Positions 6,056 to 63,912 of a stretch of DNA of 64,000 bases are shown here, piece after piece (the stretch's first letter is position 1; the number at the start of each line of letters is the position of its first letter). The DNA is from Escherichia coli. GTDB taxonomy: Bacteria; Pseudomonadota; Gammaproteobacteria; Enterobacterales; Enterobacteriaceae. The position numbers were made by a program, and so were the translations under genes. The notes beneath the pieces were generated by a model that was not told the DNA's origin, ran no database searches, and worked only from the letters and a program-made list of their open reading frames with translations. The stretch is taken from the NCBI RefSeq assembly GCF_044647545.1, contig NZ_CP172818.1; one strand, 5' to 3'.

Positions 6056-8362
6056 ATGTTTAAGCCCAGGATTTGCAGCTGGATAGGTTTACTTCCCCTG
6101 TTTATGCTGAGTCTTCCAGTACAGGCGGACCTTCGATGTGTTGCAAATGCAGTTGATATTGAACCATTTTTTTCTGCGGCTACCGCTGAAGATAAACAAC
6201 AAGTTGAACAAGCTATCAACAGTAGCGTGAATCTTGTCCCCTTCGGTTTATCTGCATCGGACTGGAAAGTGCATCGTGGCGATTTAGTGGTAGACGGTAA
6301 TATAGAGAGTAATCAAAAATTGATTGTTCTTGGCAATTTGACAGTCAAAGGTAATATTTCCACTTTCTCTCTTTCTAATCCATGGGTTATTCTCGGTAAC
6401 GTGACGGCAACGAATATAGTTACGGATTCACCACTGTTAATTACCGGTTCGATAAATGCAAGTGGACTGGTATTTATCGACTCATATTACGATAATCCGT
6501 CTACGATTAAGGGGAGTATTAATGCGCGTGGGATATTTATCAATGACATAATTGCACCTGTTGTTGCGTCTTCGACAAATAGTGAATTCATGGTCCGTGC
6601 GAGTGACAAAAATGACACTGAAAATGTCAAAAAAGCGCTGATGATAATAAATCCTGATGCATATTATTGGGATCTAATAAATGATGAAGATGCTCTGAAA
6701 GAAATTTTTAAGCGAAGCAATATTCGCATGGCAGGGAATGTCTGTAATCTGATGAAAAAAGAAGCGCTGTTTCGCCCTAAGCCTTCTCCTGAGTTAGTGC
6801 AGGAATTGCAAATGCTGGATGAAGGCAACGTTGCTGCATTTGAAGGACGAGATATTGCGACATTTGATCTTGCCATAATGCGAACTCTCCCAAGGCTTAA
6901 AGGAATTTCAGCTAACCTACGCAAACAACTTATTAATAGCAATGATGGACAAACGATTGAAAGTATGGCGAGATATATGCCTGACAATGAGATTCTGGAG
7001 TTGACCGATCAGCAATTGGGTTACCAGCCTGTTGTTCTGGGGTTGCTCGACCGTGAACCGCTCTCTGTCGAAATAATGACGCGAATGAGTCATCTACCTG
7101 ATGGTGTCGGTCCGTTGAATCTTGCGCTACGTGAAAATCTCCCTCTGGATATCGTCATGACTCTGGCGAAAAGAGATTGGGATATGATCATTCAGGAGCT
7201 TTATAAAGATGCGTGGTTATTGCCCGAATCCATTATTGATGGCTATATCCGCAGTGATGATTCCTCTATTCGTCAGGTCGGTGCTGGAGGACAACTCACC
7301 TACAATCAGGCAATGCAGTTGGCGAACGATTCATCAAACGATGTTGTCACAAGCTTAGCGTCAAAGCTGGCAGAGATGAAACACCATGGTCAATTGTTGC
7401 GGATGACGCCACAAGAGAGTGACAAAATAGCAGTATATTTATACCAAAAATTCGAGAATGACGATGATCTAATAGGTGCGTTATTTTTAGCGTTGCCAGA
7501 TAACTTACAGTTTAATTTTGTTAAAAGGATGGAGAAAAAATCCCCTGCCTACTTTTGCTGTCGGGATATGCAGGTAATTCACTCTGACGCTGCTTTACAA
7601 CGGTTATTGACACGTTTCAACGATCCTGAGGGGTGGAGTAATCTGGCGAAAAATCAGTATCTGAGTACGGCGATGAAACAAAAAATTTGGCATCGCGCTT
7701 TATCGCATCGAAAAAATAATCCGAAAGCAGATTCTGCAGCATATGAAACCAGCGCTGATATGATTTTGTCGGAGCTTATCAGCTACGGTGAAGTTGATGA
7801 CCAGATGCTATTAAATGCCGCCTCTCTGATACGTTCGGAAGGCTGGGACTTTTTAGAGAGTGCATTAGTTAGTTGGGATAATTTACCCGCTGTTGTCCTC
7901 AAGGAATTACAGCAAAATATGCCACGCAATGATATTTGGGCGAAGTTTTTTCTGAGGCAGGAAAACAGCTCTCGTGCGCAGGTTAACGAAGCGTTACGTG
8001 TTTATTATGCACTAGACCCCGATGCGTTAGCACAACTGGATGTACTGGCAAAACAACCGGATCGTATATGGTGGAGTTCGCTGGCGAAAAGCAATCTTAC
8101 ATTTTTCAAGTTCGGTGCACTTAACAATCGCCATACACCGTCTGCGGCACTGGCGGCAGAAATTGATCCCGAGTGGTGGATTGTGGCGATGAATAATCCC
8201 CGTTTTCCAGTTGATGTATTAAAGGCGAGGCTGAAACGTGATCCTTTGCTGGCGTTAGAGCTTGTTAAACCTGAACTGGATTTAGTCCGCCAGCTGGCGC
8301 TTAACGGTAAGACGCGCGCAATACGGGAACAAGCGATGAGAAAACTTGATGAGTTGTATTGA
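6056..8362 (+). CDS. ydbD: Secreted protein YdbD of unknown function (signal peptide, beta-helix-like repeats, C-terminal helical repeats)
   Basis: 768-aa ORF from the ATG at 6056 (track ORF begins at an upstream GTG, 6050); N-terminal signal peptide …LSLPVQA. Confidence 0.8.
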   Translation: MFKPRICSWIGLLPLFMLSLPVQADLRCVANAVDIEPFFSAATAEDKQQVEQAINSSVNLVPFGLSASDWKVHRGDLVVDGNIESNQKLIVLGNLTVKGNISTFSLSNPWVILGNVTATNIVTDSPLLITGSINASGLVFIDSYYDNPSTIKGSINARGIFINDIIAPVVASSTNSEFMVRASDKNDTENVKKALMIINPDAYYWDLINDEDALKEIFKRSNIRMAGNVCNLMKKEALFRPKPSPELVQELQMLDEGNVAAFEGRDIATFDLAIMRTLPRLKGISANLRKQLINSNDGQTIESMARYMPDNEILELTDQQLGYQPVVLGLLDREPLSVEIMTRMSHLPDGVGPLNLALRENLPLDIVMTLAKRDWDMIIQELYKDAWLLPESIIDGYIRSDDSSIRQVGAGGQLTYNQAMQLANDSSNDVVTSLASKLAEMKHHGQLLRMTPQESDKIAVYLYQKFENDDDLIGALFLALPDNLQFNFVKRMEKKSPAYFCCRDMQVIHSDAALQRLLTRFNDPEGWSNLAKNQYLSTAMKQKIWHRALSHRKNNPKADSAAYETSADMILSELISYGEVDDQMLLNAASLIRSEGWDFLESALVSWDNLPAVVLKELQQNMPRNDIWAKFFLRQENSSRAQVNEALRVYYALDPDALAQLDVLAKQPDRIWWSSLAKSNLTFFKFGALNNRHTPSAALAAEIDPEWWIVAMNNPRFPVDVLKARLKRDPLLALELVKPELDLVRQLALNGKTRAIREQAMRKLDELY

Positions 8363-56564: not shown

Positions 56565-56830
56565 TGCTCTCCCTGATTGCTTTAATGAAAAAGTCATATA
56601 AGTTGCCATGAACAATGTTTATTCATCCTGGCGATGATAGTTATCACCATTATTCTTTATGGGTATAAAACTATCGGCGCAGCATCCTACCCGTTATCGA
56701 TAAACGATGCAAAACATCCCCTTACAATCCTGAAGGGGAATAATACAACTGACGAAAAAATGACAAATCCTTTTGCTGGTTAACCTGTGTACTGTCCTAC
56801 ACTTAATCTTTAAAAGATTGTGAGGGGCAT

Positions 56831-57448
56831 ATGATTAAGGTGTATGGCGTACCCGGATGGGGCTCTACAATCAGTGAGCTGATGCTAACACTGGCTGATA
56901 TTCCTTATCAGTTCTTTGATGTCAGTGGTTTTGACCACGAGGGAACTTCACGCGAGTTATTGAAAACCCTGAACCCGTTGTGTCAGATTCCGACACTGGC
57001 GCTGGAAAATGACGAGATTATGACGGAGACAGCGGCGATTGCATTGATGGTTCTCGATCGTCGCCCGGACCTTGCGCCACCGGTTGGGCGCGCCGAACGT
57101 CAGCAGTTTCAACGGCTATTGGTCTGGCTGGTTGCTAATGTCTATCCAACATTCACTTTCGCCGATTACCCTGAGCGTTGGGCTCCTGACGCACCTGAAC
57201 AGTTAAAGAAGAATGTTATTGAATATCGAAAATCGCTTTATATCTGGTTGAATTCGCAGCTCACTGCTGAACCTTATGCGTTTGGTGAGCAACTAACGCT
57301 GGTGGACTGTTATCTTTGCACTATGCGCACATGGGGGCCTGGGCATGAATGGTTTCAGGATAATGCCACGAATATCAGTGCGATTGCTGATGCTGTATGT
57401 CAGTTACCGAAATTACAAGAAGTATTAAAAAGGAATGAAATTATTTGA
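56831..57448 (+). CDS. yncG: Glutathione S-transferase-like protein
   Basis: 205-aa ORF with thioredoxin-like N-terminus. Confidence 0.8.
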   Translation: MIKVYGVPGWGSTISELMLTLADIPYQFFDVSGFDHEGTSRELLKTLNPLCQIPTLALENDEIMTETAAIALMVLDRRPDLAPPVGRAERQQFQRLLVWLVANVYPTFTFADYPERWAPDAPEQLKKNVIEYRKSLYIWLNSQLTAEPYAFGEQLTLVDCYLCTMRTWGPGHEWFQDNATNISAIADAVCQLPKLQEVLKRNEII

Positions 57449-57523
57449 GTGGGATACCAGAAGATTATGTTATTTATTATTCAGTAACTTTATCCACAAT
57501 GATGGGCGTAATTAATTAAATTC

Positions 57524-57736
57524 ATGTTATGTTTTTTAATTTATATCACTCTCCCTTTCATTCAGCTTGTCTATTTCATTTCCTCTGAAAAGAAACTAAC
57601 TATTCACATTGTGCAGATGTTTCAGTTGTTATCACAGGTATTCTATAATCTCAAAATGTTTTTAATGATGGATATGCTCGGAGTTGGAGATGCAATTAAT
57701 ATTAATACAAATAAAAATATCCGGCAGGTATGCTAA
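57524..57736 (+). CDS. yncH: Small hydrophobic protein YncH (70 aa) in AT-rich DNA
   Basis: ATG-start ORF MLCFLIYITLPFIQLVYFISSEKK… in strongly AT-rich sequence; coding status uncertain. Confidence 0.5.
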   Translation: MLCFLIYITLPFIQLVYFISSEKKLTIHIVQMFQLLSQVFYNLKMFLMMDMLGVGDAININTNKNIRQVC

Positions 57737-58474
57737 AAGGATAAATGGCGTTCTCTGTATTTATTCGCAATTATCTGTAGGACAAATATGGAGAGCTTGA
57801 TGAGTCAGAGCTAAAACAGCAATTGATTAATAAACATGTTGATTTATTCAAGAAAATGGATGTATTTTAAATATTGATTCTTAATATAACCTAATCAATA
57901 GATTATCACGTGAGAGCTGCACATTATTGGAGGGGCAGGGGAAAACACCATTTTGGGAACAATGCATCAGGTACTCTTACCACTGAAGCAAGATCATCCG
58001 GGCACCAGGTGGTGGTGCAGTGCTTTGGAAATGGTCCCCTCGGGGGAGTTGTCATTATTTTCTATGCTATTTGCTTATTATATTCATCAGGTGAATTTAA
58101 TAAATTCCTAATTTGAAATATCCACTATTAAGCCAGTGTTTAACGACGTTAAGATGGCAATGTGCAGATCATGTTATCAGGGTGGGGCGGTAGCGTATAT
58201 TCCTTATACAAACCATCATTCATTTCAATGATTGTTATTGAATTATTTATTGTTGTGAATAAAAAGACATTATGAATATTGGTTTGACTTTGCATATCAG
58301 GTTTTTTATTACTCGCTGTAATGTACGAGCCTGTCGTGAATAACGTCGAGAACCCATCCGTTGCGTTTGTGATTATTTTGTTGACTAAACAGACACCCGT
58401 TTCTCTGAAGTAAAATCCCAGACTAAATCATCACATAACCATGACATTTTTCTGATATTCCCCGGTAACGCCAG

Positions 58475-60109
58475 ATGTCGACTCGCTTATCCACCCTCAG
58501 CCATACCAGTGAAGGCCACCGCGTGTCGGTCCACTACGGCTATGACGATAAAGGCCGCCTGACCGGCGAACGCCAGACGGTGGAGAACCCGGAGACGGGG
58601 GAACTGCTGTGGCACCATGAGACCGGACATGCGTACAACGAACAGGGGCTGGCAAACCGCGTCACGCCGGACAGTCTGCCGCCGGTGGAGTGGCTGACCT
58701 ACGGCAGCGGCTATCTTGCGGGCATGAAGCTGGGCGGGACGCCGCTGCTGGAGTTCACGCGCGACCGCCTGCACCGTGAGACGGTGCGCAGCTTCGGCAG
58801 CATGGCAGGCAGTAATGCCGCATATAAACTGACCAGCACATACACCCCCGCAGGCCAGTTACAGAGCCAGCACCTGAACAGCCTGGTGTATGACCGTGAC
58901 TACGGGTGGAATGACAACGGCGACCTGGTGCGCATCAGCGGCCCGCGACAGACGCGGGAATACGGCTACAGCGCCACGGGCAGGCTGGAGAGTGTGCGCA
59001 CCCTCGCACCAGACCTGGACATCCGCATCCCGTATGCCACGGACCCGGCGGGCAACCGGCTGCCGGACCCGGAGCTGCACCCGGACAGTACACTCACAGT
59101 GTGGCCGGATAACCGCATCGCGGAGGATGCGCACTATGTCTACCGCCACGATGAATACGGCAGGCTGACGGAGAAGACGGACCGCATCCCGGCGGGTGTG
59201 ATACGGACGGACGACGAGCGGACCCACCACTACCACTACGACAGCCAGCACCGCCTGGTGTTCTACACGCGGATACAGCATGGCGAGCCACTGGTCGAGA
59301 GCCGCTACCTCTACGACCCGCTGGGACGGCGAATGGCAAAACGGGTCTGGCGGCGGGAGCGTGACCTGACGGGGTGGATGTCGCTGTCGCGTAAACCGGA
59401 GGTGACGTGGTATGGCTGGGACGGAGACAGGCTGACGACGGTGCAGACTGACACCACACGTATCCAGACGGTATACGAGCCGGGAAGCTTCACGCCGCTC
59501 ATCCGGGTCGAGACAGAGAACGGCGAGCGGGAAAAAGCGCAGCGGCGCAGCCTGGCAGAGACGCTCCAGCAGGAAGGGAGTGAGAACGGCCACGGCGTGG
59601 TGTTCCCGGCTGAACTGGTGCGGCTGCTGGACAGGCTGGAGGAAGAAATCCGGGCAGACCGCGTGAGCAGTGAAAGCCGGGCGTGGCTTGCGCAGTGCGG
59701 GCTGACGGTGGAGCAACTGGCCAGACAGGTGGAGCCGGAATACACACCGGCGCGAAAAGTTCATTTTTACCACTGCGACCACCGGGGCCTGCCGCTGGCG
59801 CTCATCAGCGAAGACGGCAATACGGCGTGGCGCGGGGAGTATGATGAATGGGGCAACCAGCTTAATGAGGAGAACCCGCATCACCTGCACCAGCCGTACC
59901 GTCTGCCAGGGCAGCAGTATGATAAGGGAGTCGGGCTGGTACTTATAACCGTCACCGGTACTACGATCCGTTGCAGGGGCGGTATATCACCCGGGACCCG
60001 ATTGGGTTGAGAGGTGGATATGGATATGTATCAGTATCCGTTGAATCCCATACAAGTGATAGACCCAATGGGGTTAGATGCGATTGAGAATATCATAATA
60101 TCAGGCTAA
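58475..60109 (+). pseudogene. rhsE: rhsE remnant: C-terminal part of an Rhs core with a frameshifted tail
   Basis: GC-rich ORF 58475..60010 with YD-repeat content (…[12 protein letters not shown]…[12 protein letters not shown]…); the conserved end (…[17 protein letters not shown]… and DPMGL) continues in the two other frames; no N-terminal half upstream. Confidence 0.8.
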
Positions 60110-61204
60110 TTAATTTATGCCGTATCTGGTGTACCTGGATTGATTGCTGCAAACAGCATTACTAACAGTGCTTACCAGTTCGGTTATGATATGGATGCTA
60201 TTGTTGGCGGAAGCTCATAATGGGGCCGCCGATGCAATGAGACATATCGTCACTTGATGTGTCGAATGACTAAGACATTTGGATCAAACAATAGCTGACG
60301 TGATAGGAAAAATCATGAGGCGGCAGGGATAACAAGGTCAGCCAGCTAAAGAAAAGTAATCATGGATCTAAAAAATAACACTGTCGGTATTGCTTGTGGC
60401 GATTTTTGGCCAAATGTAGCGATGATGTATTGTAAAATATAACACTGGGAAAACTCTTCGGGTTAGATGGTATAAAAGCAGATAACTCCAATAAAAACAA
60501 AGCAAGGGAGTTTCAGACGCTTCAAATTATTAGAGGCAAACTTGTCATTTTTTTTAATTACCCTTTGTTTATTTGTTGTTTACAATCTTCTGGGTTTGAT
60601 AACAATTCAAATTCTTGATATTGTCATTTTATGGACATAAATACCTAAAGAGCGTTGAGATATCTTTCTGAAAAAAATATTATTTATAAAATAATTAATG
60701 ACCAAAAAATTAGTAGAGGGAATGGTCATTTTATAAGTATAATGGTTAATAATTACAGGACGCACTGTGGAGTGGTTGATAAACTTAATTTTTTCAATGA
60801 TATTCTTTATAGCGTGCGATTAAAAAACATTAAAGCAAACTTGCAGAATATGGAGTTCTGCGCTAAAAAATAATGCGTATTTTAGTGATAAAAACAAGAA
60901 GGCTAGTTATAAAATAATTAATTATGGAGAACTATCACGATGTTGATTATTATGATAACAATTTGAAAAATGAAGCTTTTTGACTGGATTGGTAAATGGT
61001 CATAATGAACAACACCAGAAAGTAGAAAAATATAAAATACATACAGAAGATACTAGAAGCAAGGGACGGGCAGGGCAATATTATGAAAATTGTGATGTAA
61101 AATCACGATTTTCATCTTGGCTTGAACGCTAGCAGGCTATTAAAATTTAACCTTTGGATAAATGGAAAAAGATAAAAAAGGACCAAGTGATATTTTAAGT
61201 TTGC

Positions 61205-62290
61205 TTGATTATATTTAGCTATCTCTATATACGACAACAAGGAAGCTTAAACATAAATCTATCCGCTATTTTGTTTCTCACCGTATGTGAGAATTGCGAG
61301 GCCCATGAGTGGCAGGAAATTGAAGATTTTGGACATGAAAGACTTGAATGGCTAAAGAAATATGGTGATTTTGATAATGGGATTGCGGTCGATGACACCA
61401 TTGCACGCGTTGTGAGTAACATTGACAGTTTGGCCTTTGGAAGATGTTTATTGAATGGATGCAGGAGTGCCATGAAATCACTGATGGTGAAATTATAGCA
61501 ATAGATGGAAAGACCATAAGAGGCTCCTTTGATAAGGAAAGAAAAGGAGCAATCCATATGGTGAGTGCATTCTCAACCAAATGGTGTTGTACTCCGGCAG
61601 GCGAAACGGAAGCCAAAAGTAATGAGATTACAGCCATTCCACAGTTGCTTAACCTACTGTATTTAAAGAAAATTTTGATAACCATCGACGCTATGGGCTG
61701 TCAGAAAGATATCGCTTCGAAGATTAAAAGATAAAAAAGCAGATTATCTTCTGGCAGAAAAGGCAATCAGGGGAAATTACATCATGCATTCGAGGAAAAA
61801 TTTCCTGTAAATGTGTTTTCTAATTATAGGCGATTCGTTTAGTACGCAGGAGATAGTCATGGAAGAAAAGAAACACGTTTTCATATTGTAGTAACGTAAC
61901 GCCTGAACTTTTGTGATTTTGAATTCAATGGAAGGGATTAAAAAAGCTTTGTGTAGCATTGTCATTCAGGCAGAAGAAAGAAGATAAATCAGCAGAAGGT
62001 GTAAGCATCCGATACTATATTTCATCAAAGGATATGGATGCTAAAGAATTTGCACATGCTATCAGAGCGCACTGGCTGATCGAGCACAGTCTTCATTGGG
62101 TGTTAGATGTAAAAATGAATGAAGATGCCGCCGGATAAGAAGAGGAAACGCAGCCTAAATAATATCTGGAATAAAGAAGATGGCACTGAATTTATTAAGA
62201 GATTGCAAAGACATTAAGGGTGAAGAGGAAAAGAAAGAAGGCTGCGTTAAACACAGGGAAAGATCATCAGAAGTTCACTTTTTGTACTAA
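61205..62290 (+). pseudogene. yncI: Degenerate H-repeat (ISAs1-family) transposase copy
   Basis: ORFs 61205..61498 and 61444..61734 plus downstream fragments align piecewise to the ydcC protein (…WQEIEDFGHERLEWLKKYGDFDNGI…, …IAIDGKTIRGSFDK…AIHMVSAFS…) with several frameshifts and stops. Confidence 0.65.
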
Positions 62291-62397
62291 ATAATTCGCA
62301 TTTTATGTTTAAAAATTGAGATATTCCTCATTACCTGAAGCTGTTTTTTATTGCTTATACATGATCAAATACTCCTTACATAATTAAGGAGAACAAA

Positions 62398-63533
62398 ATG
62401 GAACTTAAAAAATTGATGGAACATATTTCTATTATCCCCGATTACAGACAAGCCTGGAAAGTGGAGCATAAATTATCGGACATTCTACTGTTGACTATTT
62501 GTGCCGTTATTTCTGGTGCAGAAGGCTGGGAAGATATAGAGGATTTTGGGGAAACACATCTCGATTTTTTGAAGCAATATGGTGATTTTGAAAATGGTAT
62601 TCCTGTTCACGATACCATTGCCAGAGTTGTATCCTGTATCAGTCCTGCAAAATTTCACGAGTGCTTTATTAACTGGATGCGTGACTGCCATTCTTCAGAT
62701 GATAAAGACGTTATTGCAATTGATGGAAAAACGCTCCGGCACTCTTATGACAAGAGTCGCCGCAGGGGAGCGATTCATGTCATTAGTGCGTTCTCAACAA
62801 TGCACAGTCTGGTCATCGGACAGATCAGGACGGATGAGAAATCTAATGAGATTACAGCTATCCCTGAACTTCTTTACATGTTGGACATTAAAGGAAAAAT
62901 CATCACAACTGATGCGATGGGTTGCCAGAAAGATATTGCAGAGAAGATACAAAAACAGGGAGGTGATTATTTATTCGCTGAAAATGAAACCAGGGGCGGC
63001 TAAATAAAGCCTTCGAGGAAAAATTTCCGCTGAAAGAATTAAATAATCCAGAGCATGACAGTTACGCAATGAGTGAAAAGAGTCACGGCAGAGAAGAAAT
63101 CCGTCTTCACATTGTTTGCGATGTCCCTGATGAACTTATTGATTTCACGTTTGAATGGAAAGGTCTGAAGAAATTATGCGTGGCAGTCTCCTTTCGGTCA
63201 ATAATAGCAGAACAAAAGAAAGAGCCAGAAATGACGGTCAGATATTATATCAGTTCTGCTGATTTAACCGCAGAGAAGTTCGCCACAGCAATCCGAAACC
63301 ACTGGCACGTGGAGAATAAGCTGCACTGGCGTCTGGACGTGGTAATGAATGAAGACGACTGCAAAATAAGAAGAGGAAATGCAGCAGAATTATTTTCAGG
63401 GATACGGCACATCGCTATTGATATTTTGACGAATGATAAGGTATTCAAGGCAGGGTTAAGACGTAAGATGCGAAAAGCAGTCATGGACAGAAACTATCTG
63501 GCGTCAGTCCTTGCGGGGAGCGGGCTTTCGTAA
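62398..63533 (+). pseudogene. ydcC: H-repeat-associated (ISAs1-family) transposase, split into two frames in this sequence
   Basis: ORF 62398..63003 ([18 protein letters not shown]…) and ORF 63069..63533 are contiguous parts of one protein; the span is 1136 bp (not a multiple of 3), with the frame change near 62985..63003. Confidence 0.65.
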
Positions 63534-63912
63534 TCTTTCCCTGGAGTGGCAAAGAACTGGTGGTGAATAATCCCGTTATTAGCAGACTTTTAACAATATG
63601 ATTAAGCTGCATCTTAAGCGTCTCCAGAATGGACTTTTATTGGGGGTATTTACGGATAAAAATTTTTGTGAGGGGAAAAATAAATATAATGGGCGTTAAT
63701 AAATTGGCAAGCCGGGAATTTTTTTTTTTTTAATGGCATGTTGGCAAAAAATATATTCTGCAAGTTTTTTTTTTTGGCTTTTTTTTTAAAAGGGTGTAAA
63801 ACAAACCTGTACAAATTCAAGTAGGCATTATTGCCGTAAAAAAGCATCACCGGACACATAACATTCACAACGTGTGTTAATTTTACTGACATCTTTCAAA
63901 AGGAGCACAATC

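Follow-up and report, generated by a model that had tools for sequence, protein, structure and literature searches.

The RhsE element of Escherichia coli K-12 is reportedly truncated, according to work of the Hill laboratory (Sadosky 1991; Wang/Zhao/Hill 1998), and the same laboratory is said to have found that vgr genes precede RhsE and RhsG in isolates from nature. In the MG1655 annotation, the order at this locus is yncG-yncH-rhsE(pseudogene)-ydcD-yncO-yncI-ydcC-pptA, with no feature between yncH and rhsE. K-12 rhsE has been described as a pseudogene (PMC3032704), the rhsE of EDL933 lies downstream of its own vgrG (PMC7216683), and the 'vgrE orphan locus' of EHEC O157:H7 and aEPEC O55:H7 corresponds to Z2253-Z2262 (PMC12981562).

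Here we analyzed a 64,000-nucleotide stretch of E. coli DNA (hereafter the window), in which yncE, ansP, yncG and yncH are followed by a 738-bp gap, an Rhs fragment, ydcD-like DNA and H-rpt (ISAs1) copies. This is the 32.9-min locus of E. coli, yncG-yncH-rhsE-ydcD-H-rpt, with rhsE truncated as in K-12. The slot characteristic of the RhsE element (yncG/yncH through pptA, followed by H-rpt/ISAs1) is present, and an H-rpt occupies 62254-63543 with the inverted repeats CAGGGAAAGAT/ATCTTTCCCTG. The window is 97-98% identical to MG1655 overall and distinct from K-12. Our comparison with the K-12 RhsE element (b1456) reveals that both share the slot (yncH ... rhsE-ydcD-H-rpt), a deletion junction and an identical Rhs core (58500-59800), but the window has T instead of A at 58490 and carries three extra frame-breaking single-nucleotide insertions that are absent from K-12. 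Unlike the identical core, the tip/ydcD/yncI region (59800-61800) is 5-15% divergent from K-12, and this pattern suggests that recombination may have occurred downstream of a shared deletion.

By comparison, the intact vgrE locus of O157:H7 shares with the window the flanks yncG, yncH and pptA and the 820-bp intergenic DNA at 98-99% identity as far as 66 nt 5' of vgrG, but retains vgrG (702 aa) and a 1400-aa Rhs, whereas the window is without these 4.44 kb. A further relative is the cusS-linked vgrG-eagR(DcrB-like)-rhs island ('vgrG-2 / vgrG1-rhsF' in EDL933), which shares the unit beginning at 58052 at 88-90% identity, but lies at another chromosomal site and, besides carrying an EagR-type chaperone gene, encodes a different Rhs. 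The locus is therefore ordinary and largely already known, through the truncated rhsE of K-12 and the intact vgrE-rhsE island of EHEC. New here are the junction at base level, the source of the fragment's start codon and the demonstration that a 68-aa open reading frame (ORF) in the spacer is spurious. The biology is little changed by these findings; a short conserved element, block B, is the one point of wider reach and the only item that merits follow-up.

The loci used for comparison were those of FDAARGOS_497 (L001), O157:H7 (L005), Nord122 (L006) and JNEC-KY174 (L007), together with cusS-linked vgrG islands (L002, L003) and PAAR-type islands (L008-L010). On both sides (56801-58491 and 62254-63638), FDAARGOS_497 matches the window at 100% identity, and between these identical flanks it has vgrG in intact form, with an ISEc1 insertion at rhs codon 6 (L001 9301). 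The window's own combination of segments found no match among complete RefSeq genomes. The features of the locus are listed in Table 1.

Table 1. Positions of the features at the yncH-rhsE locus of the window, and sequences at the deletion junction
Feature	Position	Strand	Remarks
yncH (DUF5445, 70 aa)	57524..57736	+	Pfam PF17520, E = 9e-41; last annotated gene 5' of the spacer
Locus-specific AT-rich non-coding DNA	57737..58051	.	3' of yncH; outside the vgrG unit
68-aa ORF, GTG start	57910..58116	+	Apparent chance ORF, not a gene
GC-rich patch	57985..58051	.	59.7% GC (flanks 26-34%); right end coincides exactly with the left edge of the vgrG unit
vgrG (vgrE) upstream-region relic	58052..58491	+	First 440 of the 505 bp before the vgrG start codon
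Block A (GAATTTAATAAATTCCTAATTT)	58093..58114	+	15-21 of 22 identical across four island types
Block B (GTGCAGATCATGTTATCAGGGTGGGGCGGTAGCGTAT)	58162..58198	+	Candidate shared promoter/operator; 34-37 of 37 identical across island types
TTATCA-16-TATATT	58174..58201	+	Candidate -35/-10 pair; consensus scan, 9 of 12 positions
TTGACT-17-TATTAC	58284..58312	+	Predicted rhsE promoter; K-12 RNA polymerase-sigma70 genomic SELEX; position confirmed in the window
Fused 'rhsE' ORF	58475..60010	+	5 leader codons (MSTRL), then Rhs core from codon 734
Deletion junction	58487..58492	+	TTA(T/A)C microhomology
Junction sequence, vgrG leader			...CGCTTATC|TCATCC; longer reading ...GACTCGCTTATC / TCATCC...
Junction sequence, rhs gene (Nord122, L006 17467)			...GGTGGTTAAC|CACCCTCAGCC; longer reading ...GGGTGGTTAAC / CACCCTCAGCC...
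Junction sequence, window			CGCTTATCCACCC; longer reading ...GACTCGCTTATCCACCCTCAGCC...
Junction sequence, K-12			CGCTTAACCACCC; longer reading ...GACTCGCTTAACCACCCTCAGCC...

The spacer and its vgrG leader relic

The spacer (57737-58474) extends from the yncH stop codon (57736) to the ATG of the Rhs fragment (58475) and comprises 738 bp of non-coding DNA. A preliminary description of this DNA had reported roughly 730 bp of AT-rich DNA in front of an Rhs fragment without an N-terminal domain, and both points are borne out: the GC content is 36.7%, as against 62-68% in the Rhs core, and Pfam detects only RHS_repeat and RHS in the 511-aa ORF of the fragment, whereas the intact O157:H7 Rhs additionally has DUF6531 at residues 46-123. 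When 57449-58474 was compared by megablast with 5426 complete E. coli genomes, the whole stretch was recovered in 3552 of them, with yncH as its sole annotation, and many of the 5426 contain a second copy of 58081-58472 adjoining cusS. In some strains (NZ_CP076646.1, NZ_CP195498.1), an IS1 is inserted inside this spacer stretch (57449-58474).

The 5' part of the spacer, 57737-58051, is found at this locus only, in 3575 genomes at 95-100% identity, and is never annotated; as a single-copy segment, 57737-58060 does not occur outside the yncH-rhsE locus. Searched against all fetched island DNA (tblastx, blastn-short), 57737-58060 gave chance-level matches only (E of at least 0.17), and a search of a plasmid collection with the spacer segment returned one match, a mislabelled E. 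coli chromosome.

By comparison, the 3' part is colinear with the vgrG leader of intact islands. The relic at 58052-58491 is 100% identical to FDAARGOS_497 6604-7043, where vgrG starts at 7109, that is, 83 bp after the position equivalent to 58474. It is also 97-99% identical to the DNA upstream of vgrG in O157:H7, Nord122 and JNEC-KY174 (L005-L007), and 89% (L002) and 80% (L003) identical to that upstream of the cusS-linked vgrG genes. Homology with the cusS island begins at the left edge, 58052, and, at 88-90% identity, covers the leader as well as the initial 1.5 kb of vgrG. Because it is unbroken from 58052 into vgrG, the unit consists of a 505-bp leader together with vgrG. The possibility that the entire spacer represents ordinary intergenic DNA without any relation to the Rhs element, into which rhsE was inserted as a fragment, would fit the locus-specific and unmatched segment 57737-58051. 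It is, however, refuted by the colinearity of 58052-58491 with vgrG-upstream DNA here and at two other loci, and by the junction alignments, which place the break 66 nt short of the vgrG start on one side and at rhs codon 734 of the same intact arrangement on the other, with microhomology; we regard it as extremely improbable. Instead, the spacer is very probably the remnant of the yncH-vgrG intergenic DNA of an orphan type VI secretion (T6SS) island, which the literature calls the RhsE element or 'vgrE' locus and from which one deletion of ~4.44 kb took vgrG and the front half of rhs.

The leader relic contains a 30-aa ORF with an ATG start (58321-58413), which is not conserved, its ATG being ATA in the cusS-linked leader; in Nord122, the ATG region is deleted. 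An Rfam scan of 57300-58700 gave no match at E <= 1, and RNAalifold on five vgrG leaders returned a covariation term of +4.38 (a penalty), with one compensatory pair of 97.

The yncH gene itself is part of strain-variable DNA that starts right after the yncG stop. In ~1140 genomes, homology with the window ends at this stop codon (57446), and another island fills the slot. There, the alternative contents are PAAR-vgrG-DUF2169-PAAR-like or PAAR-vgrG-M35 (L008-L010 9830-10370). Some genomes are also without yncG, so that the island directly follows ansP, and small ORFs-vgrG-eagR-rhs is another filling (L011, L014). Given these alternative fillings after yncG or ansP, the slot is a hot spot of orphan T6SS islands, one of the alternatives being that which includes yncH with its 315 bp of unique DNA. 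A search for YncH paralogues beside other islands found none, and a literature search on yncH found no work on the gene.

The deletion junction and the start codon of rhsE

The breakpoints were located by alignment with the intact loci of O157:H7, Nord122 and JNEC-KY174, in which yncH is followed by ~820 bp, vgrG (2109 bp), 66 bp and rhs (~4.2 kb). Homology ends at 58491, corresponding to L005 13042 and lying 66 nt 5' of the vgrG ATG, and resumes at 58492-58497, corresponding to L005 17485-17490 in codon 734 of the 1400-codon rhs. Compared with O157:H7, the window thus misses 4442 bp, and compared with Nord122, 4440 bp. The missing DNA comprises the terminal 66 nt of the leader, the whole of vgrG (702 codons), the 66-nt vgrG-rhs gap and rhs codons 1-733. 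In terms of Pfam domains, the loss comprises Phage_GPD, Phage_base_V and Gp5_trimer_C of VgrG, and DUF6531 and most RHS repeats of Rhs. The intact form, with vgrG and a full-length Rhs including its N-terminal domain, is accordingly absent from the window.

The junction falls at 58491/58492, and the first base of Rhs-derived DNA is ambiguous within 58490-58492 owing to microhomology. The preliminary description had put the start of the rhsE core at about 58460; Rhs DNA starts at 58492, and the rise in GC content from 58460 belongs to the end of the vgrG leader, which is GC-richer (58460-58491, 59% GC). The joined repeats form an imperfect 5-bp pair, TTATC in the leader and TTAAC in rhs, and the sole difference between the window and K-12 at the junction is the mismatched base of these repeats. 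The deletion thus appears to be microhomology-mediated and to have removed vgrG too, and in the window and the K-12 lineage it would represent a single event between TTATC and TTAAC.

A 120-nt junction probe was matched end to end in 410 of the 5426 complete genomes, and in ~3100 others it matched with its leader half only. Those of the 410 that were listed are all K-12 derivatives or K-12-like; they match at 99.2% identity and carry A, the rhs-type base, at 58490. The window has T, the leader-type base, at this position, unlike the listed junction-bearing genomes. Since the window has T where the 410 genomes have A, a second event is conceivable, and the lineage of the window might in principle have undergone an independent deletion at the same microhomology.

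Through the deletion, the vgrG leader now borders directly on the central part of the Rhs core. The first codon of the 'rhsE' ORF, the ATG at 58475 from which b1456 is annotated to start, is leader DNA, as are the next four codons; it is AAG in cusS-linked leaders, and no Shine-Dalgarno sequence is visible 5' of it. This ATG, which the leader contains by chance, is in frame with the core and so gives rise to the ORF annotated as the 'rhsE' pseudogene. For annotation, this means that the K-12-type 'rhsE' pseudogene starts with a codon of the vgrG leader and not of Rhs.

Compared with K-12, the window has three extra single-base insertions at 59925-60035, around the conserved Rhs C-terminal motif. 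Because of these insertions, the fused ORF ends at 60010 (511 aa) instead of extending over 682 codons. They may reflect either genuine decay or errors of sequencing.

The 68-aa ORF and the GC-rich patch

The preliminary description had drawn attention to a GTG-started 68-aa ORF with a GC-rich centre and had taken it for a relic of a deleted upstream gene. Both the ORF and its GC-rich centre are present, and the deletion and a relic exist as well, but the relic is 58052-58491 and not the ORF, which lies with its GC-rich centre almost entirely 5' of the vgrG unit, in locus-unique DNA. The alignment to intact rhs loci proposed there located the deletion endpoint at 58491/58492 and separated a 3' part that is Rhs-linked, though non-coding, from an ORF-bearing part that is unrelated. 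The alternative formulated there, an ordinary spacer without Rhs-linked similarity, consequently holds for the ORF part and fails for the 3' part.

Both the window and FDAARGOS_497 have an uninterrupted ORF, as would be expected of a real small gene or of the decayed remnant of a gene once upstream of rhsE. However, a 1-nt deletion at 58000 shifts its frame in K-12 and JNEC-KY174 (L007), and a T>G change at 58079 creates a premature stop in O157:H7 and Nord122 (L006). A 51-mer centred on the deletion site was matched by megablast in only 1729 of the 3575 segment-bearing genomes; as such a match needs a 28-nt word, about half of the 3575 genomes would, judging from the megablast misses, carry the 1-nt deletion. 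In addition, the ORF has never been annotated by PGAP, Pfam gave no match to it or to overlapping ORFs, and no Shine-Dalgarno sequence precedes its GTG. Searched against 5.8e9 and 1.84e9 proteins, the 68-aa ORF and a 43-aa antisense ORF retrieved only incomplete hypothetical proteins of E. coli that derive from this locus, so that the translated search suggested earlier yielded nothing beyond partial translations of this DNA. The sole outside protein match, P0007, was rejected as a tandem-repeat translation artefact sharing 'HGNGPLG'. In any frame (tblastx), the region showed nothing below E = 0.17 against vgrG, rhs, eagR and PAAR DNA.

The length of the ORF is uninformative, because an ORF of at least 68 aa arises in 38.5% of 2000 dinucleotide shuffles of the spacer. 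The frame is thus broken in orthologous loci, lacks relatives and domains, and is no longer than chance would give. With broken frames, no annotation, no Pfam or protein relatives and a chance length, it appears to be a chance frame and should not be called a gene; a small gene or gene relic is very unlikely, even though two properties of the GC-rich centre speak for one. Firstly, the anomaly is real: the GC maximum of the patch (67-bp window) is reached in 0.2% of the 2000 dinucleotide shuffles, which indicates genuine compositional heterogeneity. Secondly, the patch stops exactly at the edge of the vgrG unit, as the remnant of a former neighbour might.

As for the patch itself, it has no similarity to vgrG, rhs, PAAR or eagR DNA (tblastx, blastn) and no Rfam match, and both of its strands fold no better than shuffles (z-scores -0.7 to +0.45). 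The only feature found in it is a weak terminator-like hairpin at 58035-58047. Patch and hairpin together might act as an intrinsic terminator and shield the island against read-through from yncH, a role to which a 5-bp stem with four GC pairs, a T-rich tail and a place directly before the vgrG unit would be suited. The stem is short, however, with a 3-nt loop, the folding z-scores (-0.67 to +0.45 against shuffles) are unremarkable, the scan gave two such sites against an expected 0.8, and the site lies 300 nt past the yncH stop, so that we consider a terminator function unlikely.

Conserved blocks and candidate promoters in the leader relic

In K-12, genomic SELEX detected binding sites of the RpoD holoenzyme (in vitro) and of H-NS within the yncH>rhsE spacer (PMC3946193), which is listed at 32.89 min with an H-NS mark in Table 3 of Shimada 2014 (PMC3946193). 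The promoter predicted from this work, TTGACT-17-TATTAC, is degraded in cusS-linked leaders. Our promoter scan found fewer promoter-like sites than in shuffles, and both candidates in Table 1 are consensus matches. Taken with block B and the -35/-10-like pair, the binding of RNA polymerase and H-NS in K-12 suggests that the relic may still carry the promoter region of the island. Transcription of the rhsE fragment and of ydcD, if any, would then begin in the relic leader and be silenced by H-NS. Any rhsE product would be undeliverable, since vgrG and the N-terminus of Rhs have been lost and K-12, like B, has no T6SS (PMC6730261).

Two short blocks within the leader are conserved between island types, while the segments flanking them are down to 37-50% identity. 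Block B occurs upstream of yncH-vgrG, cusS-vgrG, ansP-linked and yncG-PAAR-vgrG islands, and is kept in the yncG-PAAR context though vgrG there is only 70% identical. Besides the window, copies lie at L008 10033-10069, L011 7085-7121 and L002 8082-8118. Block B overlaps the -35/-10-like pair at 58174-58201, and in three contexts homology stops a few bases after it. An 86-nt query containing block B (58130-58215) was matched in 4738 of the 5426 E. coli genomes, and of two scans of the GTDB species representatives (100,044) for block B, the first gave no match and the second a single one, an E. coli-like contig binned as Citrobacter; block B seems confined to E. coli.

It is possible, though we hold the idea only tentatively and think it the less probable case, that block B, perhaps with block A, is an E. 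coli-specific cis-element heading diverse orphan T6SS effector islands. These would include vgrG-rhs, vgrG-eagR-rhs, small ORFs-vgrG-eagR-rhs and PAAR-vgrG islands at no fewer than three chromosomal sites (at least three). If so, block B would be a shared promoter or operator that couples island expression, or a fixed 'entry' sequence before exchanged cassettes, and its copy in the window would be a fossil before a dead rhsE. In EHEC, the main T6SS promoter does not drive the orphan vgrG islands, and replacement of the vgrG1 promoter gave neither VgrG1 nor RhsF (PMC13141884). Since the regulation of orphan T6SS islands in E. coli is poorly understood, a shared cis-element would offer a testable handle.

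Other roles for block B were considered and set aside. A GATC at 58167-58170 inside the block adjoins a -35-like element, as in the likewise T6SS-linked, Fur/Dam-controlled promoter of EAEC sci1 (PMC3145626), and a Fur-box-like GATCATGTTATC stands beside it. This resemblance was noted by eye, and the spacing is off by one; in contrast to the sci1 promoter, the half-site spacing in the window is unfit for a 19-bp Fur box. With the spacing off and the GATC lost in 2 of 12 copies (L006 and L014), a Fur/Dam switch was dropped as a weak lead. An att site or terminal repeat was rejected as well, as the window has no second copy of block B (up to 3 mismatches) and no matching repeats. So was an ISAs1 target site, as other ISAs1 left ends have unrelated flanks. 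In PAAR-type leaders, a truncated ISAs1/H-rpt left end starts 5 nt after block B (L008 10075, L009 10076, L010 10058 and L012 121(-)); it consists of the inverted repeat CAGGGAAAGAT, ~145 bp and the first codons of the transposase.
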